This document shows positions 2,535 through 63,943 of a DNA stretch of 64,000 nucleotides, one piece after another. The number at the start of each line of letters is the position of its first letter. The stretch's first letter is position 1. This DNA comes from Rubripirellula sp. (GTDB lineage: Bacteria; Planctomycetota; Planctomycetia; Pirellulales; Pirellulaceae). A program made the position numbers and the translations under genes. Under the pieces are notes generated by a model. It was not told the DNA's origin. It ran no database searches and saw only the letters and a list, made by a program, of their open reading frames with translations. The stretch covers positions 4,448,001-4,512,000 of the forward strand of contig OZ244207.1 of the NCBI GenBank assembly GCA_965216875.1. The letters are read 5' to 3'.

Positions 2535-3845
2535 ATGGCGAAAAAGAAACGGACCAATCGCGGACGGAGTTCCAACAACAGCGGCTCGGCTACGTCGCAA
2601 AGCAACGGCAAGCCACGCGTTCGTCGTCGCCGTCGCGGCGGTGGCGGAGGCGGAGGAGGCGGCGACAAGCAGAACAATGATCGCGAGCCTCAGGATGTTC
2701 CCAGCGACGCCCCGCTTGAAGAGGGCGATGGGATCCTCGAACTTCATCCCAATGGCTACGGCTTCCTTCGCAGCACCGAAAACAACTATGCCCGCGAACG
2801 AAGCGATCCGTTTGTTCCCGGCACCATGATCGAACGCTTTGGACTTCGCCAAGGTGTGCACATCAAAGCGATGGTCCAACAAGCTCGCCGCCAACAAGGC
2901 CCGCGCGTTCGCGAGATCCTTGATGTCGATGGCATGTCGCCCGAAGCTTACCCCGACGTGAAAAGCTTTGACGCGCTGACCCCCATCAACCCCGAGGAAT
3001 GGTTGCGACTTGAACGTGGCCAACGTCCCATCACCAACCGCGTGATCGACCTGTTGGCTCCGATGGGCAAAGGTCAACGAGCACTCATCGTTGCTCCACC
3101 GCGAAGTGGTAAGACCGTGATGCTTCAAGATATCGCGGGCGGTATCGCCGAGAATCACAAAGACGTCAAACTGATCGTCTTGCTGATCGACGAACGCCCC
3201 GAAGAAGTGACCGACATGCGTCGCAATGTCTTGGGCGGTGAAGTCGTCGCCAGCAGTCTCGACATGGACGTGGAAAGTCACGTTCGCCTCAGTCAACTTG
3301 TGGTCGATCGGGCGCGCCGCTTGGCCGAAATGGGACAAGATGTTTTCTTGATGCTCGATTCGATCACCCGCTTGGCTCGTGCCTTCAACAAGTGGGTTGG
3401 CCGCAGCGGTCGCGGTGGAGCGACCATGACGGGCGGTTTGGACATCAAGGCGATGGACATCCCCAAGAAGCTGTTCGCTACCGCACGTGCCTTCCAAGAA
3501 GGCGGCTCGCTTACCGTCGTCGGTACAGCGCTGGTCGATACCAACAGCCGAATGGACGAAGCGATTTTCCAAGAGTTTAAAGGTACCGGTAATATGGAAC
3601 TGGTACTCGATCGACGCTTGGCCGATCGTCGCGTGTGGCCTTCAATCGACATCTCCCAAAGCGGCACCCGTCGCGAAGAGCTGCTTCACGACGAAGAGAC
3701 TTATGAAGCGGTCACGATGTTGCGACGAACACTGAGCAGCATGCATCCGTGCGACGCGATGGAACAATTGACCAAGCAGCTTGGTCGATTTGAAACGAAC
3801 GAGGAGTTCATCAAATTGATCAGCGGTGCCAGCTCGGCTCTCTAG
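2535..3845 (+). CDS. rho: Transcription termination factor Rho
   Basis: GYGFLR RNA-binding motif, Walker A APPRSGKT, LIDERPEEVTD, DSITRLARA, FKGTGNMEL, SGTRREELL. Confidence 0.97.
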   Translation: MAKKKRTNRGRSSNNSGSATSQSNGKPRVRRRRRGGGGGGGGGDKQNNDREPQDVPSDAPLEEGDGILELHPNGYGFLRSTENNYARERSDPFVPGTMIERFGLRQGVHIKAMVQQARRQQGPRVREILDVDGMSPEAYPDVKSFDALTPINPEEWLRLERGQRPITNRVIDLLAPMGKGQRALIVAPPRSGKTVMLQDIAGGIAENHKDVKLIVLLIDERPEEVTDMRRNVLGGEVVASSLDMDVESHVRLSQLVVDRARRLAEMGQDVFLMLDSITRLARAFNKWVGRSGRGGATMTGGLDIKAMDIPKKLFATARAFQEGGSLTVVGTALVDTNSRMDEAIFQEFKGTGNMELVLDRRLADRRVWPSIDISQSGTRREELLHDEETYEAVTMLRRTLSSMHPCDAMEQLTKQLGRFETNEEFIKLISGASSAL

Positions 3846-39872: not shown

Positions 39873-41282
39873 ATGATTCACCGAAACACAACGCCCCAAC
39901 CAGCCAAATCGCTGCCACGTGTTTTTGCTCGATTGGTCGCAACCTGGTTGGGTCTCGCACTGCTCACCCCAAACCTGATTGCCGATTCACCGAAGGATGA
40001 CGCTCGCCCGAATATCGTTTTCATCTTGGCCGACGATCTTGGTTACGGCGATCTCGGTTGCTACGGACATCCTGATGCCAAGACACCGCGGATTGATCAA
40101 CTCGCCGCGGAGGGTGTTCGCTTTACTCAGCATTATTCCAATGGCCCCGAATGCAGCCCAACGCGGACCGCTTTCTTGACGGGACGATATCAACAGAGCC
40201 TGCTCGGACTCGAATGTGCCATCGGCACCGGCAACGTGGGTCGCTACGACGACGCGATCAAACTCGCCAATGAACGGAATCTAGGCTTGGCCGCAGAAGC
40301 GACCGTCATCCCTGGACAATTAAAAAAGTCGGGATACGCCTGTGGCATCTTTGGAAAATGGCACCTCGGTTACGAACCACACTTCAATCCGATGATACAC
40401 GGCTGGGATTCGTTCTTCGGATACCTCGGCGGCAACGTCCACTACTTCAATCATCGGGAAACGAGTGACCTGCACGTTTTGTTCGATGGTGTGCTGCCGG
40501 TTCATCGCGAAGGCTACATGACCAAGCTGATCACAGACGCTTCGATCGAGTTCATTGAAAACGAAAGCGGTCCTTTCTTTCTTTATGTTGCCCACGAATG
40601 CCCCCACTTCCCGTACCAGGGTCCAGACGACGAGAACAAAGTGGTCAACGCCGACAACTGGATGGAAGTTGATCAGCGAGCCTACGTTGCCATGCTTGAA
40701 AACCTCGATTCGGAAGTTGGCCGCATCCTCGATTGCCTCGACCAAAAAGGCCTTTCGAAAAACACAATCGTTGTCTTTGCCTCCGACAACGGCGGCTTTG
40801 CCGGAGCCGCAAACATGAAACCGCTCTCGGGGGCCAAGGGCACAACCATGGAAGGCGGGATTCGAGTACCGCTGGTCGTCCGCTGGCCTGGGCAGATCTC
40901 TCCGAGCGTCAGTGATCAGGTTTCGCTGACTTTTGATTTGACCAAGTCATTCCTGAACCTTGCTGGCGCCGACACGAACACGCTGGCCCTCGATGGCATC
41001 GACATCCTCTCACACGTGGCAAACCGAGACCAAGATGTTGACCGCACTCTCTTTTGGCGCGGCAAGCGAGGCACGAAAGTGTGGTCCGCCGCGCGGGATG
41101 GCGACATGAAACTGGTGCGAAAACTTCAAAACGGCAAGCGAGAAGAGTCGCTCTTTGATCTGTCCACCGACATCAGCGAATCAAACAACCTGATCGACTC
41201 CAGCGCCAACACCGCCGCCAAACTCCGTGCCAGCCTTGACCAATGGGAATCCGACATGGCGGAACGCAGTAAGGCTCTATAA
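39873..41282 (+). CDS. Sulfatase (formylglycine-dependent)
   Basis: PNIVFILADDLG, CSPTRTAFLTG, GKWHLG, SDNGG, EGGIRVP. Confidence 0.95.
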   Translation: MIHRNTTPQPAKSLPRVFARLVATWLGLALLTPNLIADSPKDDARPNIVFILADDLGYGDLGCYGHPDAKTPRIDQLAAEGVRFTQHYSNGPECSPTRTAFLTGRYQQSLLGLECAIGTGNVGRYDDAIKLANERNLGLAAEATVIPGQLKKSGYACGIFGKWHLGYEPHFNPMIHGWDSFFGYLGGNVHYFNHRETSDLHVLFDGVLPVHREGYMTKLITDASIEFIENESGPFFLYVAHECPHFPYQGPDDENKVVNADNWMEVDQRAYVAMLENLDSEVGRILDCLDQKGLSKNTIVVFASDNGGFAGAANMKPLSGAKGTTMEGGIRVPLVVRWPGQISPSVSDQVSLTFDLTKSFLNLAGADTNTLALDGIDILSHVANRDQDVDRTLFWRGKRGTKVWSAARDGDMKLVRKLQNGKREESLFDLSTDISESNNLIDSSANTAAKLRASLDQWESDMAERSKAL

Positions 41283-41419: not shown

Positions 41420-42229
41420 CTAGCTTCGTTTGAAGGCGATGCCGCTTGACGCCGCTCCGTCGAGCTTGAAGGTGAACTGGTTGGCTGCACCCGTCCAGCT
41501 TCCGGCCATCTTTTGAAGATCGTTCGAACGCACCAATGTCAATTGACCGCCAGCGAGTCGAAATTGTCCTTGGAACATGCTCGACTTTCCCGCTCGATTG
41601 GCGGTCCACACAAAGCTGCCGTCCGCATTCAATTGCAGTTGAACGGACTGGTTGCCCGGCAGCGATGCCGTCCAGCGACCGACGTGATCGGCAGCCAGCT
41701 GCTGTTGAGATGCACTGACCTGTGCGCCCTGAGCGTTTGCTTGAATGCTTGGCGTTTGAGGGGCGGCCGCGTTGCTTTGTGAACTCTGACCACCCGACAT
41801 CGAAACGAGCAGTTGCAAAGCCGATGTCTCTGCGTTCGAAGCACTCACGGTTGACGGCTGAGCTGCCGGTGCTGGCGAAGGCGATTGCAATTTCTTTGGC
41901 GTTGAAACGGTTGCTGACGATTGACCGATTTGCCCAGCATTCGGTACGCCACCGGGTACTGGCATTCCAATTTGGCCGTGCACAGGTGCGACGCCATTGA
42001 TGGGCGGGGCGACAACGGGAGCGATCGCAGGTGGTTCATTGCAAATGGGCCTTTGCGGTGCGATGTAGACCGGTTGTCTCGCAACCGGATAGTGGCCGCG
42101 ACTCACCGAAACGAAAGACCGTCCACCGCGACCTCCGCACGCCGTCGCAGGGACGGTACAAGAAACACTGACTGCGATCGAGGCGGCGGCGAAAAACAAC
42201 TGTTTGATGCGACGTTTCATGGTTCTCAT
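41420..42229 (-). CDS. Secreted Pro/Gln-rich protein with C-terminal beta-barrel-like domain
   Basis: Signal peptide ending ATA-CGGRGG; low-complexity middle; VGRWTA...LNADGSFVW...G.F.L.GGQLTL domain. Confidence 0.8.
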   Translation of the reverse strand: MRTMKRRIKQLFFAAASIAVSVSCTVPATACGGRGGRSFVSVSRGHYPVARQPVYIAPQRPICNEPPAIAPVVAPPINGVAPVHGQIGMPVPGGVPNAGQIGQSSATVSTPKKLQSPSPAPAAQPSTVSASNAETSALQLLVSMSGGQSSQSNAAAPQTPSIQANAQGAQVSASQQQLAADHVGRWTASLPGNQSVQLQLNADGSFVWTANRAGKSSMFQGQFRLAGGQLTLVRSNDLQKMAGSWTGAANQFTFKLDGAASSGIAFKRS

Positions 42230-42308
42230 TCCTGATCATTGGGATGCGATGGAAGGGTCTGTTTCGTGATGCGATCGTCTCGAGTTGTTGACGCCGCTCT
42301 CTGAATCA

Positions 42309-42337
42309 CCAAGCGAAACGAAATTCGCTTCGTTACA
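42309..42337 (-). promoter_or_regulatory. ECF-type promoter motif copy 1 (TGTAAC-N16-CGCTTGG)
   Basis: Minus strand TGTAAC gaagcgaatttcgttt CGCTTGG, about 80 nt upstream of the start at 42229. Confidence 0.85.
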
Positions 42338-42369
42338 CATAAATCCGACAATTTGAAACATGTCGGGCA

Positions 42370-43572
42370 TCAATCAGCCAACCAAGCAGCCAACGTATCG
42401 GTCGACGACTGCGTTTCCTTTTTCGGATTCAACTCTTTGCTCATGGCGCCGGCGATGCGGGCGACGTAGTCGATGGTCCCTTTGAGTGCTTCGTCGGGGG
42501 CAGTCGCGTCGAGCTTGGCAACATAGATGACCATGTGCTCGCCGCTTGACGTCTTTTCGATCGCCCAACCACCAATCTTGGTCGCTGCACTTTGGCGAAG
42601 GAGGCGATTCATCAGCTCGACTTTCGGAGCCTCCTTGCTGACCAAGACGAGCGACCAGATCTTGCGAACATCGGCTCGCTGGAAGTATTCGGTGTCTTTG
42701 GCAACAAAGACCGACTGTGTGCGGCCACCCGAGAGCGACTGCTTGATTTCGTAGTGTCCCGTGTCGTGCGTCTCGTGCTCGATTTCGGCGTTGTCCAAGA
42801 GTTCCTTGGTTGGCAGCGGCGCGGGCTTCCACGAGCTCGCCAAGAACGCTTTGATTTCTGCGATATCGACGCAGTAGCTTACGAGGGCACTTTGCGGAGA
42901 AAACGACTGAGCGATCGCAATCAATTCACCTTCTGCGTTGACGACGGGCCCGCCGCTGTCACCAGGTTTGATCGGGCTCTGAGTCTCGACGACGCGGAAA
43001 TCATATTCACCGTGGTTTGATTTGAACTTTTTGTCGTAAACCGAACGGACGCGACCCGATGTGTAGACCCAAAGCACGTCGCTGCCGCCCGGGTTTCCAA
43101 TCAAATCGACTTTCGATCCAGGTTTGGTACTCGAATCGGCCAGCTCAATTGCCTTGCCGTTCTTGGGCGACTTTGGCAGCTGGATGAGCGCCAGGTCACG
43201 TTTGCGATCGATCGCCACGACCTTTCCAGGTTGGGCCAGTTTGACCACGTTCGACAAATAGTGCTTTCGCTTGACCGCTGCCGTCCCGTCGGTCACGTCG
43301 GGGAAGAATACGACGGCCGAACGGCTATCACCGACGACGTGGGCGTTGGTGAGCACCAGACGTTTTTCGCCGTCGACGTAGACGCCCGTTCCGGTCGACG
43401 TTTTGTCGTCAGCGTCACTCGTGATGATCCATGCCGTTGATGCCAACGTCTCGGAGTAGTTGTCGGCATCAGCGTGGGCCGATTGAGCCGACAACGTCAG
43501 CAGTGCTGCGGCCGAGAAAGCAAAGAATACCGACTTCAATTTCGCGATCATGCTGGTACCAGAAAGGGACAT
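42370..43572 (-). CDS. Secreted trypsin-like (S1) serine protease with C-terminal YbjN/CesT-like domain
   Basis: Signal peptide; TNAHVV, DLALI, GDSGGP triad; C-terminal alpha/beta domain (GRTQSVFV...RLLRQS...IGGW). Confidence 0.9.
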   Translation of the reverse strand: MSLSGTSMIAKLKSVFFAFSAAALLTLSAQSAHADADNYSETLASTAWIITSDADDKTSTGTGVYVDGEKRLVLTNAHVVGDSRSAVVFFPDVTDGTAAVKRKHYLSNVVKLAQPGKVVAIDRKRDLALIQLPKSPKNGKAIELADSSTKPGSKVDLIGNPGGSDVLWVYTSGRVRSVYDKKFKSNHGEYDFRVVETQSPIKPGDSGGPVVNAEGELIAIAQSFSPQSALVSYCVDIAEIKAFLASSWKPAPLPTKELLDNAEIEHETHDTGHYEIKQSLSGGRTQSVFVAKDTEYFQRADVRKIWSLVLVSKEAPKVELMNRLLRQSAATKIGGWAIEKTSSGEHMVIYVAKLDATAPDEALKGTIDYVARIAGAMSKELNPKKETQSSTDTLAAWLAD

Positions 43573-43636
43573 GGTTCACCTCGTTTTCGGCGCGGCCGGT
43601 GTCGGTCCGCATGGGAATGGGTTTGGCTCTAAGTCA

Positions 43637-43665
43637 CCAAGCGGGAAGCTGCCCAGGTTGTTACA
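43637..43665 (-). promoter_or_regulatory. ECF-type promoter motif copy 2
   Basis: Minus strand TGTAAC aacctgggcagcttcc CGCTTGG, about 65 nt upstream of the start at 43572; upstream A-tract. Confidence 0.85.
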
Positions 43666-43737
43666 GATCGCCTGAGCTTTTTTTTGAGAGCATTGGGAGA
43701 TGGGCTGTGAGCTAAGAACACATAAGCGGCCGCGCCG

Positions 43738-43803
43738 CGTTTGTAGTCCCGAGCTTTTGCCGGAATCTTGAGGCTCTTCCGCCTAAAGGCGGTACTACGA
43801 ACG
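43738..43803. repeat. GTAG-type REP-like inverted pair
   Basis: CGTTTGTAGTCCCGAGCTTTTGCCGGAA...TTCCGCCTAAAGGCGGTACTACGAACG. Confidence 0.75.
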
Positions 43804-43822
43804 GTGCGTGCAGAGCCCAATC

Positions 43823-44710
43823 TCAGCCAGCTTTCTTGAAGTTGAGCGTCATTGCGGTGCCGCCCTGAGCGTTCTTGATCTGCAGCTCGAAGGCGTCCTC
43901 TGGCGACTGATCGAATGTGCAGTCGAGAGTCACGTCGCCGTCACCAACGAGTTTCAATTGGTTGCCTGAGCGAACGACTCTCCCCTTCGAAACGGTCGAC
44001 TTGCCAGCTTTCACGTGGACCAATTGAAACCGAGCGTCGGCGGCGATCTGAATCGCGAAGGCTTCGTTGTTGGCCAACGACGCCGACCAACGTCCTGACA
44101 GCGAAGCGATGCTGGTCGAACGAGCGTTTGCCGCGGGCGACGCGGACCACAGATTGGCCTGTTTTTCAGCAAGCTGGGCCATGGCGTGCAGTTCGCTTTT
44201 CAGCCCGCTCGCGGTGACGGAACGATTCGAGATCGACGCGCGCACTTGCAGTGTTTTTGCGTTGGGATCATAGGCGAACGACCGCCCCTGATGATCGCCC
44301 GCAGCGAGGAGTTGAAGCAACGTTTGATTGCTCAATTGCGTGTCGCCGTCAATCTTGGCGAGTGTTAATCGACAGTCGAGCCGATCACGGTCGACGTCCA
44401 CGGCAATCGATGCGGGAAATTTCCAACTTGAGTGGGCCAGCGTGAGGGTGGCGTGATGATCCGAATCCTTCGCCTCCAAATTGGCCGTATTCAAGGTTTC
44501 GACAAGCGACGGAACGCTGGTGACGCGATCGACCGAGCCTGACACGTTTTTCGAAGCAACCGGGCTCACGTCGTCTGATTCTGACTCAGTAGTCGCATTC
44601 GACGCTTGAAAAACCGACTCCATCGCCACTTCGGAAAACAGCTCGTCTGCCTTCACTGGGGCCACGGACGCGAAGCTGATGAGCACAGTAAGAAGGGCTG
44701 AATGACGCAC
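43823..44710 (-). CDS. Secreted protein with YbjN/CesT-like domain and C-terminal domain paralogous to that of 41420..42229
   Basis: Signal peptide ending VKA-DE; LLQLLAA...FAYDP..KTLQVR.SISNRSVT; LSGRWSASL...GKS...G...SGNQLKLV...FKKAG. Confidence 0.8.
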   Translation of the reverse strand: MRHSALLTVLISFASVAPVKADELFSEVAMESVFQASNATTESESDDVSPVASKNVSGSVDRVTSVPSLVETLNTANLEAKDSDHHATLTLAHSSWKFPASIAVDVDRDRLDCRLTLAKIDGDTQLSNQTLLQLLAAGDHQGRSFAYDPNAKTLQVRASISNRSVTASGLKSELHAMAQLAEKQANLWSASPAANARSTSIASLSGRWSASLANNEAFAIQIAADARFQLVHVKAGKSTVSKGRVVRSGNQLKLVGDGDVTLDCTFDQSPEDAFELQIKNAQGGTAMTLNFKKAG

Positions 44711-44766
44711 GATTTGGCTCCGATTTGGGTGTGCAATCGACGGAAAGGGTCTGTTTGAGTGCTATT

Positions 44767-44795
44767 CCAAGCGGAGCTCGGGTGAGAACGTTACA
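44767..44795 (-). promoter_or_regulatory. ECF-type promoter motif copy 3
   Basis: Minus strand TGTAAC gttctcacccgagctc CGCTTGG, about 57 nt upstream of the start at 44710; upstream A-tract. Confidence 0.85.
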
Positions 44796-44850
44796 GGTTG
44801 TGTGCGTTTTTTTTCGCCCGTGAGCTGTCAGGCCTTGGGCCACACGCTTG

Positions 44851-45023
44851 CGCACCTTTCGCAGTAAAGCCTTTAGGCGGCGGGCAAAAAGATTCCGGCT
44901 AAAGCTCGGGACTACAAACGGCGGCCGGTCGCGCTCACGCATTCACGGCTCACGCACCGTTCGTAATAAAGCCTTTAGGCGGCGGGCAAGAAGATTCCAG
45001 CTAAAGCTCGGGACTACAAACGG
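44851..45023. repeat. Two tandem REP-like units of about 70 bp (102-bp period)
   Basis: CGCACC..TAAAGCCTTTAGGCGGCGGGCAA.AAGATTCC.GCTAAAGCTCGGGACTACAAACGG at 44851 and 44953. Confidence 0.85.
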
Positions 45024-45052
45024 GCAACAGAAAAATTGTTTTTGCAATTCTC

Positions 45053-45080
45053 GTAACAAACTCCGCGGGCTCTCGCTTGG
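45053..45080 (+). promoter_or_regulatory. ECF-type promoter motif copy 4
   Basis: GTAAC aaactccgcgggctct CGCTTGG, 90 nt upstream of ATG 45171. Confidence 0.85.
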
Positions 45081-45170
45081 CTACTCAGTCACGAAACGAA
45101 CGGGAACGACGAGACGCGGCAACTCACGCTTCCTTCCACTTTCAAACTGCCGTCTTTGGAGAACGAAACG

Positions 45171-45575
45171 ATGTTGAAGAAGATCCTTTTTGCAGTCGCA
45201 CCGATGATGTTGATCGCAAGCTCCGCCATGGCTGACGACAACCTGTTGGCAGCCGTCGCCAAGATGGACCTCGACTCGGCAAACGGTGCTTCGGTCGCAA
45301 CGATCGATGACGATGACTTGGGGCAAGCGGATGTCGATGCCTTGCTGGGCAACGACGAAGTGAGCGAAGAGGAAGCGATTGCAGCTTGCTTCCGTCGCGT
45401 CGGTTACGGCTACCGATATCGCGGCTGGGGTTACAGCAGCTACCGTTCATGCTACCGGTCGTACAGTTGCTTTCCTTCCTACAACTACTGCTACCGTCCA
45501 GTGAGCTACAGCTACTGCACGCCGACCTACACCCGCTACGCCCCAATCTACACCGGCTACTGGGGTTGCTGGTAA
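45171..45575 (+). CDS. Secreted prepropeptide-like protein: signal, acidic pro-region, Tyr/Cys/Arg-rich core
   Basis: GGAGAA RBS; MLKKILF...SSAMA signal; D/E-rich segment; CFRRVGYGYRY...GYWGCW tail. Confidence 0.85.
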   Translation: MLKKILFAVAPMMLIASSAMADDNLLAAVAKMDLDSANGASVATIDDDDLGQADVDALLGNDEVSEEEAIAACFRRVGYGYRYRGWGYSSYRSCYRSYSCFPSYNYCYRPVSYSYCTPTYTRYAPIYTGYWGCW

Positions 45576-45678
45576 GTCGCTGATGCGAATCGTTGCGGGC
45601 ACTCGAGAGCCCAACCTCTCAAGTGCCCAACCTCTCAAGTATCCGGCACCGACACAACTCGATGCTCTATCGCCCAAC

Positions 45679-45718
45679 GCCCGGCTCCACGTTTGATCGT
45701 GGTCGCCGGGCTTTTTTT
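45679..45718 (+). terminator. Intrinsic terminator-like hairpin after the peptide gene
   Basis: GCCCGGC-tCCACG-tttgat-CGTGG-tc-GCCGGGC followed by T7. Confidence 0.7.
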
Positions 45719-45761
45719 CGACACTCCCAAACCAATTGAAATCCAAGAAAAAGGTCCTCCG

Positions 45762-46550
45762 ATGAACCGCACCCGTCTCATGCAATGTTTGCTTGCCACA
45801 GGTTTCGTGATTTCTGCGAGCCTGAACGTCCCCGCTCAGCAGATTAGCCCCGCACAGCAGATTAGCACCTCTGAAGTCCTGCACCGTACGAATCGATGCG
45901 ATCACGTGATTGCGTTGATCCACCGACACGGCGTCAACAACAGCGTCAACCGAGCTGTTGGCAACGCAATGATTCACCATGCTGCTTTCGGCGGCATCGT
46001 TGTTGATGAATCCGACGTTGGTGACTTGCAACTCGCGGGAGTCAACCAGATCGTCGACCAAGACTCGACATGCGGGCCCAAGTTTGCCGTCCTGATTCGC
46101 AACCAAAGCAACCGAGTGGTCAGCAACTTTCGCCTCTCCGCCGTCGGCACCCTCGGTCGCATCTCGCCCTTTTCGCCAAGCACAACGATCACGGTGGGAG
46201 CCATCGGCGCTGGCGAAACGTTGCAGGTCGAGATCACTCTGCCGCTCGAAGCACTGGCGATGGGTAACCGTAATGGCCAGATCATCGGTCTGCAGCGATT
46301 GGTGATTGCCATCGACAGTTTCGACGAATTGGCGGAAACGAACGAAGCGAATAACCTGCATGCGTTCAACCTTGCACAGATCCCAACGCTGACGCTTCCC
46401 GTCGAAACAACGTCGGTATCAACGACTGAAGTGCAAGTCGATGCACCGACAACGCAGGTACCGGCGACGGAGCCGACCACTCAAACCGACCGACTGCGTT
46501 CCGCCATCGAGAAACTCGCCGTCGAGCAAACGGGCGGGGCGGTGAATTGA
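45762..46550 (+). CDS. Secreted CARDB/Ig-like domain protein
   Basis: Signal-like N-terminus from ATG 45762; GDLQL...VLIRNQS...IGAGET...AIDSFDELAETNEANN CARDB-type signature. Confidence 0.8.
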   Translation: MNRTRLMQCLLATGFVISASLNVPAQQISPAQQISTSEVLHRTNRCDHVIALIHRHGVNNSVNRAVGNAMIHHAAFGGIVVDESDVGDLQLAGVNQIVDQDSTCGPKFAVLIRNQSNRVVSNFRLSAVGTLGRISPFSPSTTITVGAIGAGETLQVEITLPLEALAMGNRNGQIIGLQRLVIAIDSFDELAETNEANNLHAFNLAQIPTLTLPVETTSVSTTEVQVDAPTTQVPATEPTTQTDRLRSAIEKLAVEQTGGAVN

Positions 46551-46600
46551 GAAGGTCGAAAAGCTCAAGTACGATTTGTGCCGCCTTCGGGCGGCGGGAT

Positions 46601-48862
46601 CTATTCGCTTTCGACGGGAACGTCTGATCCGCGTGTCGACAAGACTTCAGCCATTCGATCCCATCGATGAGTGATCTGCAAGAATGCCAAGAACGACGCG
46701 ATCAACCCGACCACTCCCGCCGCAATCGCGGTCAGCATGAACCCGCGGGCTTGGCTTTGACTGGAAATGATCAAAGCGGCGCCGAGCTGCGGAATGATCG
46801 CGGCAAACAGCAAGTAGACTTGGCTGCGGCGAAACATTTTTCGACGGCGTTTGTCAAAGTCATCGTCCTGCATCGAACCACCGACCAAGTGGGGGTAGTA
46901 GACCAACGTTGAAACCAGGGCGAGACCAAAGAATGGATAGATCATCGCGACACTGCCGCAGATCAACAGCGAAATGAAGAAGTGCGCGGCCTGAGCAGCG
47001 GTAAAGTCGGGATACATCGTCCAGAGAGCGAGTGGATAGATCAATCCAGCGGCCATCCAAAACGAACCCCCGATCACCGCCGCGCGATGCCCCAAGTTGA
47101 GCGTATCGTCGATGTTTTGACTCGAGACACGTTCACCGCGATTGGCCAATCGTATGCCGCGCACCATCCCCGAAGCGAACCACACCATGACGGGAATCGC
47201 CAACGGATAGGCCACCAAGTTGACGCAAATTGCGATCTTGTTCAGGCCATCGCGCATCTCACTGTCGAGAATCTCTTGATGGTTGTAGTCATAGTTGAAG
47301 ACGCCGCCAGCGATGTTCGGCAGTAGGATTGCCGCAACTGCGACAAGCCATGGCGACACCTTGGCCAAACGGGCGACCATCGAGTCTTCGGCCGGATCAA
47401 ACAGCTCGGCTGCCTCGGGATGCAACGCGAGACTCAGCCGCGCCGCCATTTGTGCGCCACTTTGCGGCCGATCTTCAACGGAGACCGACAATGCACCGCG
47501 AAGCGTTTTTTCCAACACGCGTTCCGACGCCGTGCCAGTTCGAACCGGCTCCAATAGCGGCAACTCTCTTGCCGCCAGTTGGCCTTGCACCGCATCGCCC
47601 CAAGAATCGACACCTTGCCGACACGCAAAGGGCCGTTGCCCCTGCCACAACTCCCAAAGCAAAACGGCAAGGGAATACAAGTCCGCGGCTTCGGCGACTT
47701 CGGCGGGTTGTTCAAGCCATTGGGCGCTGATCGCGCGCAAGTGTTCGGGGGCCATGTAGCCAATGGAACCACCAAACGAGGTCGCCGCGCCTGCCCTGCC
47801 TGCCGCCCCAGCAAAACTGACATTGAAGTCGGCAAGCTTCGGAGTCCCTTCTGCAGTCAACAAGACGTTTGCTGGTTTGACATCGCGATGCAGAACACCT
47901 TGGTCATGAGCAGCGTCCAAAGCGCGCGCCAATTGCATTCCGATCCACGCGACAACCGTCGGCCAGCCTGCCATTGCAATCCAATCGCGAATCGGCGAGC
48001 GGTCCGGGACGGCCTGGGCAGTGCCAAGCAAATTGCGATCGATGGTATCAAGTAAAACGTCACGCGGTGTTCCCGAGGGATGTTGGCGTAAGCTTTTGAC
48101 GACATCCGCCAACGTACCTCCAGGATGGAATTGCATGTAAAGCAAATGCAACGGCGGCTCTTCAATCGCCCGTTGGTCAAACACCCGCACGATGTTTGGA
48201 TGGTCAAACTGAGCCAGTGCGCGCGGTTCGTCACCGCTGCCCAAGGACACTTTCAATGCCACCAATCGATGCATTGATACTTGGCGAGCCAAATAGACGT
48301 GAGCAAACGCGCCCTGGCCAAGTTTTTGGATGATCAAAAAATCGTCGCATTGACTTCCGACGACCAACTCGGGCGGAGCACCGCGTTGCTCGACAGCCGC
48401 AGTCGCCTCGGCTGTTCCGATCAATTGTGCGAACATCCCTTCGAACTGAGGGAAACGGTCGCAATACTCCTCGCGCTTCGGCAGGTCACCCGATTCTTTC
48501 CGAAGCTGAATCTCTTCCATCACCAAATCGATCGGAATGGCGTCTTTTGACAACCACTCTGGCAACGCGTCGACGTAGCGTTCAATCCGATGTTGTTTGC
48601 CCGCCTCGGCCGACATCGCCAAGTCCATCTTGATCAGCTCGACCAACACGTACCGAGCGTCCGAGGGCTCGATCGGAGGCAGTATTTCACCGAGCTGGCG
48701 CGGGTCGTCAGTCGGTCCACACTCAATCAAACGTTCGAGACACTCAGCGATAACGTCATCGACGTCAACGTTGGCGATGTCCTCTGCAGCATCGGCTTCG
48801 TTTTGCTCGCGCTGCGGGCGATCCCACGAGTCGTCGTCTCGATCAAGCGGCGTGGGCGACAT
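46601..48862 (-). CDS. Ser/Thr protein kinase with multi-TM C-terminal domain
   Basis: GQGAFA, VALKVS, HRDVKPAN, DFN, GGSIGYMAPEH, DLYSL; about 6 C-terminal TM helices. Confidence 0.92.
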   Translation of the reverse strand: MSPTPLDRDDDSWDRPQREQNEADAAEDIANVDVDDVIAECLERLIECGPTDDPRQLGEILPPIEPSDARYVLVELIKMDLAMSAEAGKQHRIERYVDALPEWLSKDAIPIDLVMEEIQLRKESGDLPKREEYCDRFPQFEGMFAQLIGTAEATAAVEQRGAPPELVVGSQCDDFLIIQKLGQGAFAHVYLARQVSMHRLVALKVSLGSGDEPRALAQFDHPNIVRVFDQRAIEEPPLHLLYMQFHPGGTLADVVKSLRQHPSGTPRDVLLDTIDRNLLGTAQAVPDRSPIRDWIAMAGWPTVVAWIGMQLARALDAAHDQGVLHRDVKPANVLLTAEGTPKLADFNVSFAGAAGRAGAATSFGGSIGYMAPEHLRAISAQWLEQPAEVAEAADLYSLAVLLWELWQGQRPFACRQGVDSWGDAVQGQLAARELPLLEPVRTGTASERVLEKTLRGALSVSVEDRPQSGAQMAARLSLALHPEAAELFDPAEDSMVARLAKVSPWLVAVAAILLPNIAGGVFNYDYNHQEILDSEMRDGLNKIAICVNLVAYPLAIPVMVWFASGMVRGIRLANRGERVSSQNIDDTLNLGHRAAVIGGSFWMAAGLIYPLALWTMYPDFTAAQAAHFFISLLICGSVAMIYPFFGLALVSTLVYYPHLVGGSMQDDDFDKRRRKMFRRSQVYLLFAAIIPQLGAALIISSQSQARGFMLTAIAAGVVGLIASFLAFLQITHRWDRMAEVLSTRGSDVPVESE

Positions 48863-49030
48863 GCAGTGAACTTAGAAGACGACGTACAAAGGGTCTTCGA
48901 TTGCGAAGCAAAACCTGCCCCGATCGCGCAAACCTTGTCCTGATCGAAACGACCCTGCGAACCAACAGCGTTTACTGTAGATTGGAGGGCTGTCTCCGAC
49001 TACCTCGCTCTCTCAACGCGCAGCAGTACG

Positions 49031-49654
49031 ATGATGGATGAAAACGATGATTCGGATCGGGTTCTGCAGATCAAAGAGCGGGATTCGCAAGCGTTGGCCG
49101 CCTACATCCAAGACAACCGGTCTCAGCTCGAGCGGTTTCTCAGGTCGATTACGGGTGAACACTTGCTTGCGGTGGTCGAAGTGGACGATCTGATCCAAGA
49201 AATCTCGACAGCAGCTCTAACCGGTCTGCCCACCGCGCCGCTCGATCAGTACGAGCCGATGCAATGGTTGCAGCAGATTGCCAGGCGCCGCGTGGTCGAT
49301 GCGCACCGTTTTCACTTTGATGCCAAGCGGCGCGATGTGGGCCGGCAAAAATCGTTGAACGCCGCGGCCAGTCCCGACGCTTCCATGATGGGTCTCGAAC
49401 AGCTTTTGGCGGCGAGTATGACGTCACCAAGCGCTGTGGTCAGCCAGGACATTCGAATGTGCCGGATCCAGCAAGTGATCGAAGAGCTGCCCGATGAACA
49501 GAAGCAGGCAATCCGAATGCGCTACGTCGACGGTTTGCCGACCAAACAGATTGCCGAGGAACTTGGCAAAACCGATGTCGCCATCCGCGTGCTCCTTTCT
49601 CGCAGCATGCGTCAACTCGAAAAGCAGCTCGAAGACGTCCGACCAACACGCTGA
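49031..49654 (+). CDS. ECF sigma factor, planctomycete kinase-associated type
   Basis: DDLIQE, WLQQIARRRVVDAHRFH, LAASMTSPS, LPDEQKQAIRMRY..GLPTKQIAEELGKT; divergent from the kinase gene. Confidence 0.93.
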   Translation: MMDENDDSDRVLQIKERDSQALAAYIQDNRSQLERFLRSITGEHLLAVVEVDDLIQEISTAALTGLPTAPLDQYEPMQWLQQIARRRVVDAHRFHFDAKRRDVGRQKSLNAAASPDASMMGLEQLLAASMTSPSAVVSQDIRMCRIQQVIEELPDEQKQAIRMRYVDGLPTKQIAEELGKTDVAIRVLLSRSMRQLEKQLEDVRPTR

Positions 49655-49670
49655 CAGTCGCGGAACAATC

Positions 49671-49945
49671 ACCCTCCCGCTTGCGGGAGGGTCGGACGCA
49701 AACTCCGGGGAGGGAATGATTTCCATAGAACAAACCCTCTCTGGGCCCGTGAGCCGTACGCGCTAGCGTCGGGCCCTGGGAAATTCACACGAGTGCAAGG
49801 CCCGACGCTAGCGCGCTGGGCTCACCATTTGTAGCTACCTTCGCCAGAAGGTAGTTCCCATTGGCAGGCCGGCTTCCACGATCACCACGCTCTGGCGAGC
49901 GTAGCTACCAAGCGTGGTAAGGCCCGACGCTAGCGCGCTGGGCTT
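49671..49945. repeat. Cluster of several palindromic intergenic repeats
   Basis: CCCTCCCGC-TT-GCGGGAGGG; GCGCTAGCGTCGGGCC / GGCCCGACGCTAGCGC (x2); GTAGCTACCTTCGCCAGA / TCTGGCGAGCGTAGCTAC. Confidence 0.8.
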
Positions 49946-49977
49946 ACAAAAAAGTTACGTCCTCTCGGAAAAAAACG

Positions 49978-50005
49978 GTAACACTCGGCCCTCCACTCCG
50001 CTTGG
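49978..50005 (+). promoter_or_regulatory. ECF-type promoter motif copy 5
   Basis: GTAAC actcggccctccactc CGCTTGG, 58 nt upstream of ATG 50064; upstream A-tract. Confidence 0.85.
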
Positions 50006-50063
50006 CAAATAGAAACGGCAACTCACCCGCCGCAGAACACGTCTCAAATCGCCACAGGACAGA

Positions 50064-50588
50064 ATGATGAGCCGCTCCAAAACCACGCAAATCCTGCTTT
50101 TTTCCGCCGCCTGTTCCGTTCTGCTGCTCAGCGCCCCCACCGCCGAAGCCGGCAATGGTTGGGGTTGGAAAAAACCGATGAATCAGAAAATGGGAGCGTT
50201 CTACACCGGCAACAAAAAACTGCGACGCTCGTCCACATCGAGCTCGAGCCACTCCTCGCGTTACCGCCACTCGACTCATTCGACCTACCGAACGGTGACA
50301 CCCCGTACCTATCATTCCGCTCCGGTCGTCGTGAAGACCGTGCCCCAAACCGTGATGCCCATCCAACCGGCTCCCGTCACCCACGCGCCCTCCGCAACGG
50401 TACCGCCCCCAACACAGACTGCTCCGATCACAACGGCATTGCCCGAGCAGCCCCTGGCCGTTTCTGCCGCTCAACCCAAACCGGCGACTGCAAAGCCAGT
50501 GCAGGTCCCAACCCAGAAAGCGGAACAAGCCCCACCGACCGCAGAACAACAAGCCCTCGAGCTCCTTGGTCCTTGGCTCGCAAAGTGA
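50064..50588 (+). CDS. Secreted basic, Ser/Pro/Thr-rich low-complexity protein
   Basis: Signal peptide ending AEA-GNGWGW; basic His/Ser/Arg segment; Pro-rich linker; AEQQALELL tail. Confidence 0.75.
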   Translation: MMSRSKTTQILLFSAACSVLLLSAPTAEAGNGWGWKKPMNQKMGAFYTGNKKLRRSSTSSSSHSSRYRHSTHSTYRTVTPRTYHSAPVVVKTVPQTVMPIQPAPVTHAPSATVPPPTQTAPITTALPEQPLAVSAAQPKPATAKPVQVPTQKAEQAPPTAEQQALELLGPWLAK

Positions 50589-51294: not shown

Positions 51295-52188
51295 ATGGTT
51301 TCTGAATTGACCAACCCCTTCCAGGAAGATCCTCATATCGATGTGACCGACCAACAGTTGGTTGCCCAGGCGTTGGAGGGCAGTGGAGATGCGTTAGAGA
51401 AACTCGTTGCGGGTCATCAAGCTTGGCTATTCAACATCGCCGTGCGCATGGTCTGGAATGCGACGGATGCCGAAGACGTGGTTCAAGAAGTGATGATCAA
51501 GGCGGTCACAAAACTCTCCACCTTCCGAGGCGAGAGTTCGTTTCGCACTTGGTTGTACCGCATCGCTTGCAATCACGTCTTGAATATGAAACGTCGCACC
51601 TCGGAAGAACAGTTAGTGAGTTTTTCGCAATTCAGCGACGATCTCGACCGAATCCCCGATCGCGAATTGCCCGATCCCGAATCAGTGCCCGTTGACCTTC
51701 CGGTCCTCGTCGAGGAAGCGAAACTCGGTTGCCTCTCTGCAATGCTCCTCGGCCTCGATCGCCGCCAGCGGCTCGCCTACACGCTTGTCGAATTGCTGGG
51801 AGCGAGTTCACAGACGGCTGCCGAGTTGATGGAGATCACACCGGCCAACCTGCGCCAAATCGTCCATCGAGCGCGCCAGGAACTTTATCAGTTCATGAAT
51901 GGCAACTGCGGTTTGGTGAACAAAGACAACCGCTGTCGGTGTGCGGCCAAAACGCCATCGTTCATCGACGCTGGTTACGTTGAACCGGCGAACATTCGCT
52001 TTGCAGATGCATCCGCTCCAAGACTTGACACTAACGCCAAGTCACTTGAAGTGCTCGAATCGAGGGTCGACCAACTGCATCGCGAACAACAGCAGCAAGC
52101 GCGATTCATGACGCCGCCCGATGCAAAGAACTCGCTGATGCGATTTTTGAGTGATCCAGCCGTCCGTGAAACACTTTGCCTCGACTAA
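51295..52188 (+). CDS. ECF sigma factor with Cys-containing C-terminal extension
   Basis: DAEDVVQE, FRGESSFRTWLYRIACN; extension NCGLVNKDNRCRC. Confidence 0.92.
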   Translation: MVSELTNPFQEDPHIDVTDQQLVAQALEGSGDALEKLVAGHQAWLFNIAVRMVWNATDAEDVVQEVMIKAVTKLSTFRGESSFRTWLYRIACNHVLNMKRRTSEEQLVSFSQFSDDLDRIPDRELPDPESVPVDLPVLVEEAKLGCLSAMLLGLDRRQRLAYTLVELLGASSQTAAELMEITPANLRQIVHRARQELYQFMNGNCGLVNKDNRCRCAAKTPSFIDAGYVEPANIRFADASAPRLDTNAKSLEVLESRVDQLHREQQQQARFMTPPDAKNSLMRFLSDPAVRETLCLD

Positions 52189-61741: not shown

Positions 61742-63943
61742 TCACCGGTCCGCGTACACGGGTGGCTTCCACCCCTTTGGCAAACGTCCTTGCGGCCGAA
61801 CCCCCAACGCATCGTCGGGAATCGGATGATCAGACATCTTCTGTAGCGGCTCGTCATCGGGAAGATGTTTGATGTCGATGTCTTTGAATTGCACCATCAT
61901 CTTCGGACCGACATGAACCTGAAAGGCGAGCACGCCTTCGAGCGCACGACCGGTTTCGTCAAAATCGACGAGGTCCGCGGTTTGATGACCATCGATCCAG
62001 TGCTGGTGATGATTCCCAACGACCTTCACGCGATAGTCGTGCCAACGATCTGCAGCAAACTTCTTGACCGGTAGTTTGCCAACGATCCAACTGCGTCCTT
62101 GAGGATCAATCACAACACGCTCGCCGGTATGTGCCAGGATGCGTCGCCCCTTTTCTTCATACAGCATGCCGTCGTAGTTCGGGTTACTCGACACGACATC
62201 GCATTGATAGCCGGTCACGACATCAAGTCCGAGATCAGGCCGTGACGTACCGCGGTACTGAATGCCGCTGTTACCGCCCGAGCTGAGCTTCACTTTGACT
62301 CGTAGATCAAAGTTGCGCACCGTCGATCCCTTCCAAGTGATGAATCGATTCATCTTGAGCGTTCCGTCGGTGACTCCGGTCAAAGCCCCCTCTTTGACCG
62401 ACCAGTACTTTCGATCGCCGGTCCAATTCCGAAGTGTCTTGCCATCAAAGAGCCGCACGAAACCATCGCGTCCTCTTCCCAAACTGACCGCCGCCGAAGC
62501 GACTGGGTGGGGGTCGGTCGATTTGGCGAACGTCCCTTTCAACGGTTCGAGCGAGCCACCAAGCTGATCCACTCGAGCATCCGTCCGCTTTCGCATCGCT
62601 TGAAGAACCTCTTGGTGTTTTGGATCGCCAACGAGATTCACCAGTTCGTCGGGATCGTTTTTTAGGTCATGCAGGAACTCGTGGTCATGGTCAAAGTAGC
62701 GAACGTACTTGTATTGTTCGTTGCGAATGCCCTCGAAGGCGGGAATGCGACTGCGGACCGCAAAGTGCTCGTGAAAGGATTCGGTTCGCCAGTCTTGAGG
62801 CGTACGACCGTCAACGATCGGCTGGAGACTGCGGCCTTGGTAACGTTCGGGAACATCAACGCCAGCCCATTGCAGGAATGTTGCTGGCAGATCGAGGTTC
62901 AACGCGATCGCATCGCTCACCTTGCCTTGCTCACTCTTCGCAGCGCGGGGGTCCATCACGACCATTGGCACGCGCAATGATTCTTCGTAGTGTGACCATT
63001 TGCCCGCCAAACCGCGGTTGCCCATGTAGTACCCATTGTCAGCCGAGTAAACGATGATCGTGTTGTCAGCCAATCCCGCTTCATCGAGAGCTTTGATGAA
63101 GCGACCGATCGCGCCGTCGATCCCGCTGACCATTCGATAGTACGACCGCATGTTCGTGTCATACTTTTGCGGTGTGTTCCAGCGCCAAAAGAACCTCTCT
63201 CGTCCGATGCTGGTGCGCAAGAAATCGGGCAATGCATCAAAGATCTTGACGTCACCCAATCGTGGTTCCGTGATCACGGCATCTTCGTACATCCCATCGA
63301 CTGCCTTGGGCCAGGGAAATTGCCCGATGCCTGGACGGCGGTCACCGTCTTCGGCATGACAAGCGTTGAACCACATGTTCAAGGCAAACGGCTTGCCCTT
63401 CGGATTCGATTGTATGAATTCGATTCCGCGATCAACAATCAACTCGGTCTCGTGCCGAAGCGACCCATCAGACTGAGGTTTGTAGAAAGGGTTGCGTCCA
63501 ATCGCCTCGAACTCGTCAAAATGAGCTTCGCGTTTGTAGCCCTTGGGCATCTTGGCGTGCCACTTGCCAAAGTAGCCTGTACGATACCCTGCGTCCCGAA
63601 GCAGATCGCTGTAGAGTTCGTTGACGGCATCGGGGCGTGCCAACTCAGGATTGCCCGGCGTTCCATACGAACGCCCCGTCAGTCCCGAAAGAATGGTCGT
63701 GCGACTGACCCAACAAATCGAGTGGCTGACAAACGCATTGGAAAATCGCGTTCCACGTCGAGCCAAACTGTCGATGTTTGGCGTTTGCACCACCTCGTTT
63801 CCGTAACAACCGATCGTGCTTGTCGTTTGGTCATCGGTAAAGAAGAAAACGATGTTCGGCTGTTCGGCACCGAAAACCGAGGGTTGTCTGTGCGCTAGCG
63901 AGAAAGCGGCAACGAGGCAAAGAAAGTAGCGAAGTCGAAACAT
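61742..63943 (-). CDS. Sulfatase with C-terminal DUF1080 (3-keto-disaccharide hydrolase-like) domain
   Basis: PNIVFFFTDDQ, CWVSR, GKWH, ADNG; LFDGKTL.NW, GNSGIQYR, G.LAFQVH.G...VQFKDI. Confidence 0.93.
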   Translation of the reverse strand: MFRLRYFLCLVAAFSLAHRQPSVFGAEQPNIVFFFTDDQTTSTIGCYGNEVVQTPNIDSLARRGTRFSNAFVSHSICWVSRTTILSGLTGRSYGTPGNPELARPDAVNELYSDLLRDAGYRTGYFGKWHAKMPKGYKREAHFDEFEAIGRNPFYKPQSDGSLRHETELIVDRGIEFIQSNPKGKPFALNMWFNACHAEDGDRRPGIGQFPWPKAVDGMYEDAVITEPRLGDVKIFDALPDFLRTSIGRERFFWRWNTPQKYDTNMRSYYRMVSGIDGAIGRFIKALDEAGLADNTIIVYSADNGYYMGNRGLAGKWSHYEESLRVPMVVMDPRAAKSEQGKVSDAIALNLDLPATFLQWAGVDVPERYQGRSLQPIVDGRTPQDWRTESFHEHFAVRSRIPAFEGIRNEQYKYVRYFDHDHEFLHDLKNDPDELVNLVGDPKHQEVLQAMRKRTDARVDQLGGSLEPLKGTFAKSTDPHPVASAAVSLGRGRDGFVRLFDGKTLRNWTGDRKYWSVKEGALTGVTDGTLKMNRFITWKGSTVRNFDLRVKVKLSSGGNSGIQYRGTSRPDLGLDVVTGYQCDVVSSNPNYDGMLYEEKGRRILAHTGERVVIDPQGRSWIVGKLPVKKFAADRWHDYRVKVVGNHHQHWIDGHQTADLVDFDETGRALEGVLAFQVHVGPKMMVQFKDIDIKHLPDDEPLQKMSDHPIPDDALGVRPQGRLPKGWKPPVYADR

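Follow-up and report, generated by a model that had tools for sequence, protein, structure and literature searches.

What do the kinase-linked extracytoplasmic function (ECF) sigma factors of planctomycetes control, and how does the kinase gate a sigma factor that keeps its acidic core-binding motif? We addressed these questions at a locus of Rubripirellula sp. (GenBank assembly GCA_965216875.1), positions 41420–50588 of a 64,000-nt stretch of contig OZ244207.1 (4,448,001 to 4,512,000, forward strand; hereafter, the window). Here, divergent genes for a membrane Ser/Thr kinase and an ECF sigma factor are bracketed by genes for secreted proteins that share an upstream promoter-like motif, GTAAC-N16-CGCTTGG. 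Our analysis suggests that the five conserved promoter-like sites are most likely read by the sigma factor encoded at 49031–49654, itself predicted to be switched on by the kinase encoded at 46601–48862. We infer both steps, the reading of the motif and the activation by the kinase; the regulatory interpretation is strongly backed by comparison between genome sequences. The locus gives the first predicted regulon for a kinase-linked planctomycetal sigma class lacking characterised members, and supplies three parts: a sharply defined promoter, a six-gene regulon present in about 40 species and a stretch of the sigma linker that is a candidate phospho-acceptor.

A promoter-like motif confined to one locus

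Five exact copies of the motif are present in the window, where none is expected by chance and none appeared in 100 dinucleotide shuffles. By pattern matching, the copies were placed at 42309–42336 (−), 43637–43664 (−), 44767–44794 (−), 45053–45080 (+) and 49978–50005 (+) (motifs 1–5), upstream of five genes that we call P1–P5, respectively. Each is intergenic and oriented toward the following open reading frame (ORF), on whose coding strand it lies, with gaps of 79, 64, 56, 75 and 58 nt between motifs 1–5 and the respective start codons. The gap for motif 4 becomes 90 nt if P4 starts at the ATG at 45171, the start favoured by the family alignment. An earlier reading of the window (the original prediction) had reported these five copies, described them as intergenic and correctly oriented and noted an A-tract upstream of most. 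The exact matches, their orientation and gaps of 56–90 nt bore this out, and a run of at least five A was found within 25 nt upstream of four of the five copies, a feature not conserved in other genomes.

The original prediction had also proposed scanning the genome, on the reasoning that a motif scattered without positional bias would speak against a regulon. Across the whole genome (one contig, 8,264,643 bp, 56% G+C), the five copies of this locus, which fall within 8 kb, are the only exact matches. Widening the spacer to N15–17 genome-wide yielded no extra copy. When the −10 side was relaxed to GTAAC-N16-CGCT, 35 matches were found, 30 of them outside the locus; 25 of these 30 fall within open frames that are 252 aa or longer. 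A single relaxed copy outside the locus is both intergenic and followed by a long ORF: GTAAC-N16-CGCTGG at G000:C1:4329618-4329642 (−), beyond the window in the same genome (G000). The ORF, of 522 aa and with a hydrophobic N-terminal region, begins 122 nt downstream of this copy, which, judged by its placement, could be a sixth promoter. A one-mismatch copy at window position 63803 was rejected as a chance match; it is antisense inside a sulfatase gene (61742–63943 (−)). Sulfatase genes flank the locus on both sides, the other being at 39873–41282 (+) (Sulfatase, 194 bits).

In architecture, the motif is bipartite and non-palindromic, with an AAC-containing −35 box, a CG-containing −10 box and a fixed 16-nt spacer. 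ECF sigma factors typically read promoters of this type, in which AAC-type −35 and CG-type −10 boxes are separated by about 16–17 nt. GTAAC −35 boxes are quoted for Caulobacter SigF and C. glutamicum SigD in the available part of the ECF classification (PMC7826278). In an alignment of the five motif regions, invariance was confined to GTAAC, CGCTTGG and a few scattered columns; since the regions have nothing in common beyond the two boxes, they are not copies of a mobile or repeat element. Across 25 curated GTAAC-N16-CGCT sites, in which the boxes are fixed by the site selection itself, the spacer and flanks were free to vary, and an AG 9–10 nt after CGCT was conserved among aligned sites. Scanning 10.5 kb for sigma-70-like sites returned one, at 46547–46575, between gene X (described below) and the 3′ end of the kinase gene, and none before any target gene. 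A terminator scan gave no excess over shuffles (17 sites versus a shuffle mean of 13.0).

It is very improbable that the motif is a transcription-factor site or a short structural or repeat element rather than a promoter. Such a reading can point to the conserved AG after CGCT and to a stem in the 5′ untranslated region (5′-UTR) of P4, which indicate that other nearby elements are conserved too. It has to contend with two asymmetric boxes around a free spacer of invariant 16-nt length, placed always on the coding strand and 56–153 nt before a start codon. This form is that of a sigma-type promoter, unlike a dimeric operator or a mobile repeat, and no other promoter-like site precedes the target genes.

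Motif and targets in related genomes

The comparison covered G000 and 40 further genomes of its order (genomes are denoted G and individual loci L). P4 and P3 turned up in one and the same set of five among these 41 (G000, G016, G023, G036 and G040), all of which also carry full-length P2 orthologues; a distant P2 homologue is present in G010. All six P4 genes of the five genomes are preceded by GTAACA-N15-CGCT, starting 118–121 nt before the ATG. The motif was likewise present 75–124 nt upstream of every P2 orthologue (G016, G040, G023, G036 and G010) and upstream of every P3 orthologue (G016, G040, G023 and G036). In G016, G023, G036 and G040, a P1-like gene follows P2 with its own motif copy. 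The orthologues of four targets that have GTAAC-N16-CGCT upstream span four genera besides that of G000. The spacer is free between species, with both boxes and the 16-nt spacing kept, which argues for a functional bipartite site.

The arrangement of the locus also recurs. In G040, which belongs to another family of the order, the genes stand in the same order (P1, P2, P3 / P4, X / kinase / sigma factor), with four motif copies in matching places. In G010, signal-peptide genes flanking the sigma/kinase pair on either side are preceded by five copies of GTAACA-N13-TT-CGCT; their products include the P2 homologue and two proteins whose N-termini resemble that of P1. Single motif copies lie beside the sigma/kinase pair in G007, G032 and G034; the G032 copy (L025, 10911) is just downstream of the sigma gene, which is the position of motif 5. 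The same-genus genomes G001 and G002 showed no DNA match to the cluster, and their flanks are not syntenic.

We then widened the sample by searching public species-representative genomes with the P4 alignment, which gave 44 loci (218,608 bp). Nearly all are titled Pirellulaceae, comprising Rubripirellula, Stieleria, Novipirellula, Rhodopirellula, Roseiconus, Aporhodopirellula and metagenome-assembled genomes. The motif could be tested in the 41 loci for which 200 nt or more of upstream sequence was available. GTAAC-N16-CGCT was found 117–153 nt before the P4 match in 32 of the 41, with the complete −10 box CGCTTGG in 29 of these. Eight of the remaining nine have GAAAC-N16-CGCTTGG at 124–130 nt, and the last has GTAAC-N16-CGCT at 238 nt. 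The GAAAC form marks a clade of loci from Stieleria species and from some records titled Rhodopirellula (L091–L093, L095, L096, L101, L102 and L106), in which spacing and position are unchanged. A further 53 exact copies were found in the 44 loci, 50 of them on the opposite strand and reading toward homologues of P3, P2 and P1; at this genome's background rate (30 in 8.26 Mb), less than one copy would be expected in the 218,608 bp. As far as sequence comparison can tell, the motif and gene cluster thus recur in about 40 related species.

The kinase lies close to the targets in many of these genomes, being found within the 2.5-kb flank downstream of P4–X in 26 of the 44 public loci. Ten public genomes were searched whole: in seven, a sigma factor 70–72% identical to that of G000 stands directly beyond the kinase; in the other three it is 17 kb away, on another contig or represented only by a 40% match. 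The conservation and synteny in other Pirellulaceae that the original prediction had called for were therefore found, both as a motif at orthologous targets and as a kinase (26/44) and sigma factor (7/10) close by. In two cases, L091 with L093 (one contig titled Rhodopirellula baltica BR-MGV) and L119 with L123, the whole module occurs twice on one contig. This doubled module (P4, X, kinase and sigma factor) is an inverted duplication with identical promoter sequences.

The kinase–sigma pair and its predicted switch

The divergent kinase and ECF genes named in the original prediction were recognised as such by domain searches. They are 168 bp apart, and the gap between them holds no motif copy. 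The gene at 46601–48862 (−) encodes a membrane Hanks-type Ser/Thr kinase (Pkinase, 102.7 bits) with a conserved N-terminal domain of ~140 residues, the kinase domain and 6–7 C-terminal hydrophobic helices. The full Hanks-type motif set is present (GQGAFAHV at 182, conforming to GxGxFxxV; VALK at 201; HRDVKPAN at 325; DFN at 345; APE at 371), and K204, D327 and D345 are invariant in 13 sequences. Its hydrophobic segments extend across residues 502–732, with conserved Pro, Asn, Gly and Trp positions in the 13 aligned orthologues.

The sigma factor (49031–49654 (+), 207 aa) matched Sigma70_r4_2 with 55.8 bits, Sigma70_r2 with 23.9 bits (cut-off 24) and TIGR02937 with 79 bits (cut-off 42.9). Its best specific NCBIfam model was planctomycete subfamily 1, TIGR02984, at 101 bits, under the cut-off of 183.75. 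Region sigma-2.2 contains EVDDLIQE, and the acidic pattern (E/D)xxDxxQ(E/D) is kept in 20/20 and 15/15 sigma factors in two alignments. The linker carries AASMTSPSA; SMT[ST]xS is conserved in 20/20 aligned sigma factors, within a wider orthologue segment LLxASMT[ST]xSxAFSR. No anti-sigma-type Pfam family was matched in the neighbouring ORFs.

Several lines of evidence connect the motif and its targets to this sigma factor. A single orthologue (35–67% identity) was found in 21 of the 41 genomes, and the kinase gene adjoins the sigma gene in 13 of the 20 sigma loci fetched. In a phylum-wide sample, taking the best 20 candidates per genome, an orthologue at E ≤1e-30 was found in one further family only (6/6 genomes). 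P3 and P4 were found only in genomes with a sigma orthologue (5/5, compared with 21/41 genomes overall). Within the 20 sigma-orthologue loci (294,395 bp, window excluded), GTAAC[AG]-N15-CGCT was observed 19 times, compared with 0.6 expected; shuffled sequences held 0.79 on average (100 shuffles, maximum 3), and the reversed pattern was seen three times. The sigma gene of G036 has a motif copy (GTAACAATTTGTTGGCCCCTTCGCT) 72 nt upstream, at L054 (G036:C451) 3600–3624 (−). By its position, this orthologue may be autoregulated, unlike the sigma factor of G000.

Several observations weigh against this assignment, beginning with the enrichment itself, where the roughly 30-fold figure is overstated because the pattern was loosened after the relatives had been seen and because the genomes are kin. 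Relaxed-pattern counts over whole genomes of relatives did not exceed the reversed control, so that the motif signal is carried by position and clustering only. No motif copy was found in 11 of the 20 sigma-orthologue loci. Of the 40 relatives searched at first, G016 has the closest sigma factor (67%), and its targets are on contigs other than that of the sigma gene; the L074 assembly, which has the closest P2 and P4, yields only a 40% sigma match. The sigma gene of G000 has no motif copy, and the usual autoregulatory link of ECF systems is thus missing. No change in the sigma-4 recognition helix accompanies the replacement of GTAAC by GAAAC in the Stieleria-like group. A second ECF gene is present only 1.6 kb away (51295–52188). 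Lastly, on its sequence, the sigma factor retains an acidic sigma-2.2 region, to which the only proven mechanism of kinase activation, that of the ECF43 group, is not applicable.

Some of these points would fit a real promoter read by another sigma factor, either the second ECF or an unlinked one, with the adjacent pair merely a neighbour. The missing motif copy at the 49031 sigma gene, the proximity of the second ECF and the separation of targets from the pair in G016 and the L074 assembly are all compatible with it, as is a motif copy upstream of another ECF-like ORF in G032 (L036). We nevertheless regard such an arrangement as decidedly unlikely. The second ECF (51295–52188 (+), 297 aa), which bears a ~100-aa C-terminal extension with a Cys cluster (CGLVNKDNRCRC), has no counterpart beside the cluster in the syntenic genomes G040 and G010 or in the target loci of G016, G023 and G036. 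The 49031 sigma factor, by comparison, stays beside the kinase and targets in seven of ten genomes, and the motif is enriched in the loci of its orthologues. In G023, the kinase homologue is found directly after P2–P1, with the sigma factor elsewhere. The G032 copy (L036 / L057, G032:C32 about 1437 (+)) is a full one (GTAACAAGCCTCCCGGCCGTTCGCTTGG), 56 nt upstream of the different ECF-like ORF, and its placement hints at a sigma cascade in that genome.

With the 49031 sigma factor as the probable reader of the motif, we propose that a membrane or envelope signal is perceived by the 6–7-helix C-terminal domain of the kinase and that the kinase phosphorylates the sigma factor, most plausibly within the invariant linker stretch A-S-M-T-S-P-S (about residues 128–134). 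The ECF43 sigma factor EcfK, according to the available part of its description, also needs phosphorylation of the linker, at T106 (PMC13147305). Linker phosphorylation is our best guess because the acidic sigma-2.2 region is intact, the linker is invariant and EcfK T106 provides a precedent. The modified sigma factor would then guide RNA polymerase to the five promoters and hence to six genes. As the sigma gene lacks a motif in this genome, its control would be post-translational rather than autoregulatory.

We also predicted the structure of a complex between kinase residues 1–490 and the sigma factor, using our own alignments, for which the calibration counts hold roughly. The score was 0.42 (individual runs 0.42, 0.44 and 0.39), compared with 0.00 for the best of three controls; contact agreement between runs was at least 23% and partner pLDDT (predicted local distance difference test) at least 63. 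In calibration, 116 of 157 solved complexes came up to the score mark, as did 2 of 215 mismatched pairs; 18 of the 157 solved complexes, and both mismatches, reached it with scores of at most 0.60. The modelled complex therefore lends weak support to the pairing.

The modest complex score leaves some room for the sigma factor to read the motif without the kinase acting as its phospho-controller; it might be controlled through transcription or stability, be tethered by the kinase or simply neighbour a kinase with other substrates. We consider this unlikely. In its favour, a sigma factor that keeps (E/D)xxDxxQE should bind core RNA polymerase unphosphorylated, to judge from the available part of one study (PMC8999054), and the planctomycetal kinase-linked groups are listed without a characterised member in the corresponding portion of the classification (PMC7826278). 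It does not readily account for a kinase/sigma pairing conserved across the order (13/20 loci), for kinase catalytic residues that are all intact or for the invariant Ser/Thr cluster in the sigma linker. Linker phosphorylation also has its precedent in EcfK, as far as that account is available (PMC13147305), and a Pfam search of the neighbouring ORFs offered no anti-sigma candidate.

The secreted set and known systems

Phospho-control of the 49031 sigma factor would place a set of exported proteins under the kinase. At the N-terminus of all five motif-preceded products, a basic stretch and a hydrophobic stretch are followed by an AxA-like site; judged in this way by eye, the signal peptides claimed in the original prediction for P1–P5 are in place.

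P4 (45171–45575 (+) with the best start, ATG 45171) is a 134-aa prepropeptide, in which a signal peptide is followed by an acidic pro-region (net −14) and a basic part rich in Tyr, Cys, Arg, Ser and Gly. The pro-region holds a conserved LGQADVDALLG, and the junction AIAACFRR is invariant. The basic part has a net charge of +8, 26% Tyr and six Cys and ends in a conserved YWGC[WYH]. The family comprises 117 homologue clusters, none of them named and none with a Pfam domain; P4 itself matched no Pfam family at E values up to 10, the YTV domain included. In the P4 5′-UTR, at about 45115–45160 of the window, a 6-bp stem (GGCAGA ... TCTGCC) is kept in 4–5 of 6 orthologues and occupies the same place in L038, L048, L033 and L045. 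With hardly any compensatory changes (1 of 9 pairs), a leader structure is not demonstrated.

The next gene, X (45762–46550 (+)), is the sixth of the set. Its product carries a signal peptide and shows a weak likeness to CARDB (E 0.01, under the cut-off). X has no motif of its own in this genome and has one in G023. It follows P4 in 43 of 44 public loci and, from this arrangement, is likely to be co-transcribed with it. Between the two genes (window 45680–45720) we noted by eye a GC-rich hairpin followed by seven T (CCCGGC...GCCGGG TTTTTTT), which was not among the sites of the terminator scan; it could attenuate read-through into X.

P2 (42370–43572 (−)) is a secreted S1 serine protease of HtrA/Deg type (Trypsin_2, 93 bits) in which the triad H78, D126 and S206 is invariant across 38 sequences; a Pfam-type search found no PDZ domain. 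Its model (pLDDT 84.5) aligned with plant Deg2 (4fln; Z 25.7, root-mean-square deviation 2.1 over 189 residues) and with other HtrA/Deg proteases at Z of about 25. The C-terminal 150-aa tail is highly conserved, with 213 proteins at E ≤1e-3 and identities up to 87%, and is modelled as alpha-beta3-alpha-beta2-alpha. By the secondary-structure order of this model alone, the tail would have a chaperone-like topology. It matched Pfam YbjN at E 0.13, and one of 38 family members did so at E 0.12; hhalign of the domain against the P3 profile gave no match, and a wide structural search with the P2 model returned matches filled by proteases over residues 31–251.

P3 (43823–44710 (−)) is a secreted protein of two predicted domains, a type III secretion chaperone-like fold (residues 59–188) and a lipocalin-like barrel (206–293), in a model of pLDDT 80.7. 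The first domain, as modelled, has the alpha-beta3-alpha-beta2-alpha fold of class I type III secretion chaperones. In Foldseek it matched ExsC (3kxy; E 1.4e-4, TMt 0.58–0.67) and also SchA, CesT, SicP and SycE, and some P3 homologues carry the NCBI name 'type III secretion system chaperone'. The eight-strand barrel matched 4iab and 4gzv. P3 matched neither YbjN nor CesT at E values up to 10, nor any other Pfam family, and a protein atlas search returned no usable match. The label 'YbjN-like' in the original prediction therefore holds at the level of the modelled fold of residues 59–188. P3 has a signal peptide, unlike cytoplasmic type III chaperones; a type III system itself was not searched for.

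The remaining two products are basic and of low complexity. P1 (41420–42229 (−), 269 aa) is a secreted protein, rich in Pro, Gln and Ser and with a net charge of +15, that shows CGGRGGR at its N-terminus after the signal peptide, followed by a low-complexity linker and a C-terminal domain. This domain is 40% identical to the C-terminus of P3 over 55 aa (E 5e-10); a match of P1 to TIGR03066 (30 bits) was under the cut-off. P5 (50064–50588 (+), 174 aa) is secreted, basic (net +13) and rich in Pro, Thr and Ser; tblastn found no homologue in any of the loci retrieved.

The most likely role that we can suggest for the exported products, comprising the HtrA-like protease P2, the chaperone-fold/lipocalin protein P3, the prepropeptide P4, the CARDB-like X and the basic, low-complexity P1 and P5, is to remodel or arm the envelope or surface of the cell when induced. 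The combination of an anionic pro-piece, a cationic Cys/Tyr peptide, a secreted chaperone-fold protein and a dedicated protease suggests that P4 is processed and handled, and we propose that it would be cleaved by P2 at the conserved AACFRR junction and handled by P3. The 'peptide plus maturation protease' function put forward in the original prediction is to be read in the same way, as what we infer from these protein features. An envelope role is plausible because cysteine-rich proteins are components of planctomycete wall preparations, as reported in the available part of one study (PMC8567305). This undescribed and widely conserved set, with its Tyr/Cys prepropeptide family of 117 clusters, secreted chaperone-fold/lipocalin protein and PDZ-less HtrA-like protease, may thus bear on the unusual Cys/Pro-rich planctomycete envelope.

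One may go further and imagine an undescribed bacterial peptide-arming system, although in its entirety we hold this to be rather unlikely. Here, the kinase would phosphorylate the linker of an otherwise competent sigma factor, the defensin-like precursor P4 would be induced and held by the secreted chaperone-fold protein, and the PDZ-less HtrA with its chaperone-like tail would cleave it at AACFRR, to give a surface peptide that might be antimicrobial, adhesive or wall-crosslinking.

Envelope-stress ECF regulons such as that of E. coli RpoE include the periplasmic HtrA/DegP protease. They are large and autoregulated, and involve an anti-sigma factor and regulated proteolysis. The present locus is similar in that an ECF sigma factor would drive an HtrA-like protease and further exported proteins of the envelope; it differs in that the protease lacks a PDZ domain and the co-regulated proteins belong to unnamed families. 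For P4, the nearest likeness is to the YTV cell-wall proteins of planctomycetes, which are also exported and rich in Cys and Tyr, according to the part of their description at hand (PMC8567305), and P4 has CY(R/T)PV(S/T)Y-like segments. It is set apart from them by the lack of a Pfam match, a length of only 134 aa, the acidic pro-region and the conserved YWGC[WYH] end.

Among kinase-activated sigma factors, the available parts of the relevant studies describe EcfP/PknT of Vibrio parahaemolyticus and EcfK/PknS of Xanthomonas citri, both ECF43, which share with this locus an ECF without an anti-sigma factor, an adjoining transmembrane Hanks-type kinase and a dedicated regulon. In EcfP and EcfK, the acidic DxxD of sigma-2.2 is absent and a phospho-threonine supplies the charge (PMC13147305, PMC8999054). 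ECF43 sigma-2.2 thus has a conserved Thr (QTTA) and no DxxD, whereas the 49031 sigma factor and its aligned orthologues keep E/D-x-x-D. Because the acidic region is kept, the 49031 sigma factor is not an ECF43 member and the ECF43 switch is not transferable to it. Furthermore, the kinase here has a 6–7-helix membrane domain rather than a periplasmic sensor domain, and the predicted regulon consists of secreted proteins rather than polymyxin-resistance or type VI secretion genes.

The closer relatives are planctomycetal. The available portion of the classification counts about 40 ECF sigma factors per planctomycete genome and catalogues ECF59–62 and ECF217 as kinase-linked groups with no characterised member and, for ECF59, ECF61, ECF62 and ECF217, no anti-sigma factor (PMC7826278). 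It describes six helices for ECF59s1 kinases, five or more for ECF61 kinases and a longer linker for ECF59; target promoters are given as 'not conserved' for ECF61 and ECF217 and as having 'a conserved TC in -35' for ECF59 (PMC7826278). A DAED-like motif is retained in planctomycetal kinase-linked ECFs, according to the accessible part of a second study (PMC8999054). Like these groups, the present system has a planctomycete ECF, an adjacent multi-helix membrane kinase and no anti-sigma factor, and on the group descriptions the 49031 sigma factor resembles ECF59 or ECF217. What distinguishes it from ECF59, ECF61 and ECF217 is a sharply conserved promoter and a defined regulon.

The original prediction had not recognised the locus as a described system. 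That statement needs amending for the switch, whose class is catalogued (ECF59–62, ECF217), and stands for the promoter and the secreted module, as a literature search, with subscription journals outside its scope, found no account of the promoter, the regulon or the P4 family. The kind of switch was thus already known, though uncharacterised; what this locus adds is the promoter, a conserved six-gene secreted regulon and a likely phospho-site in the sigma linker.

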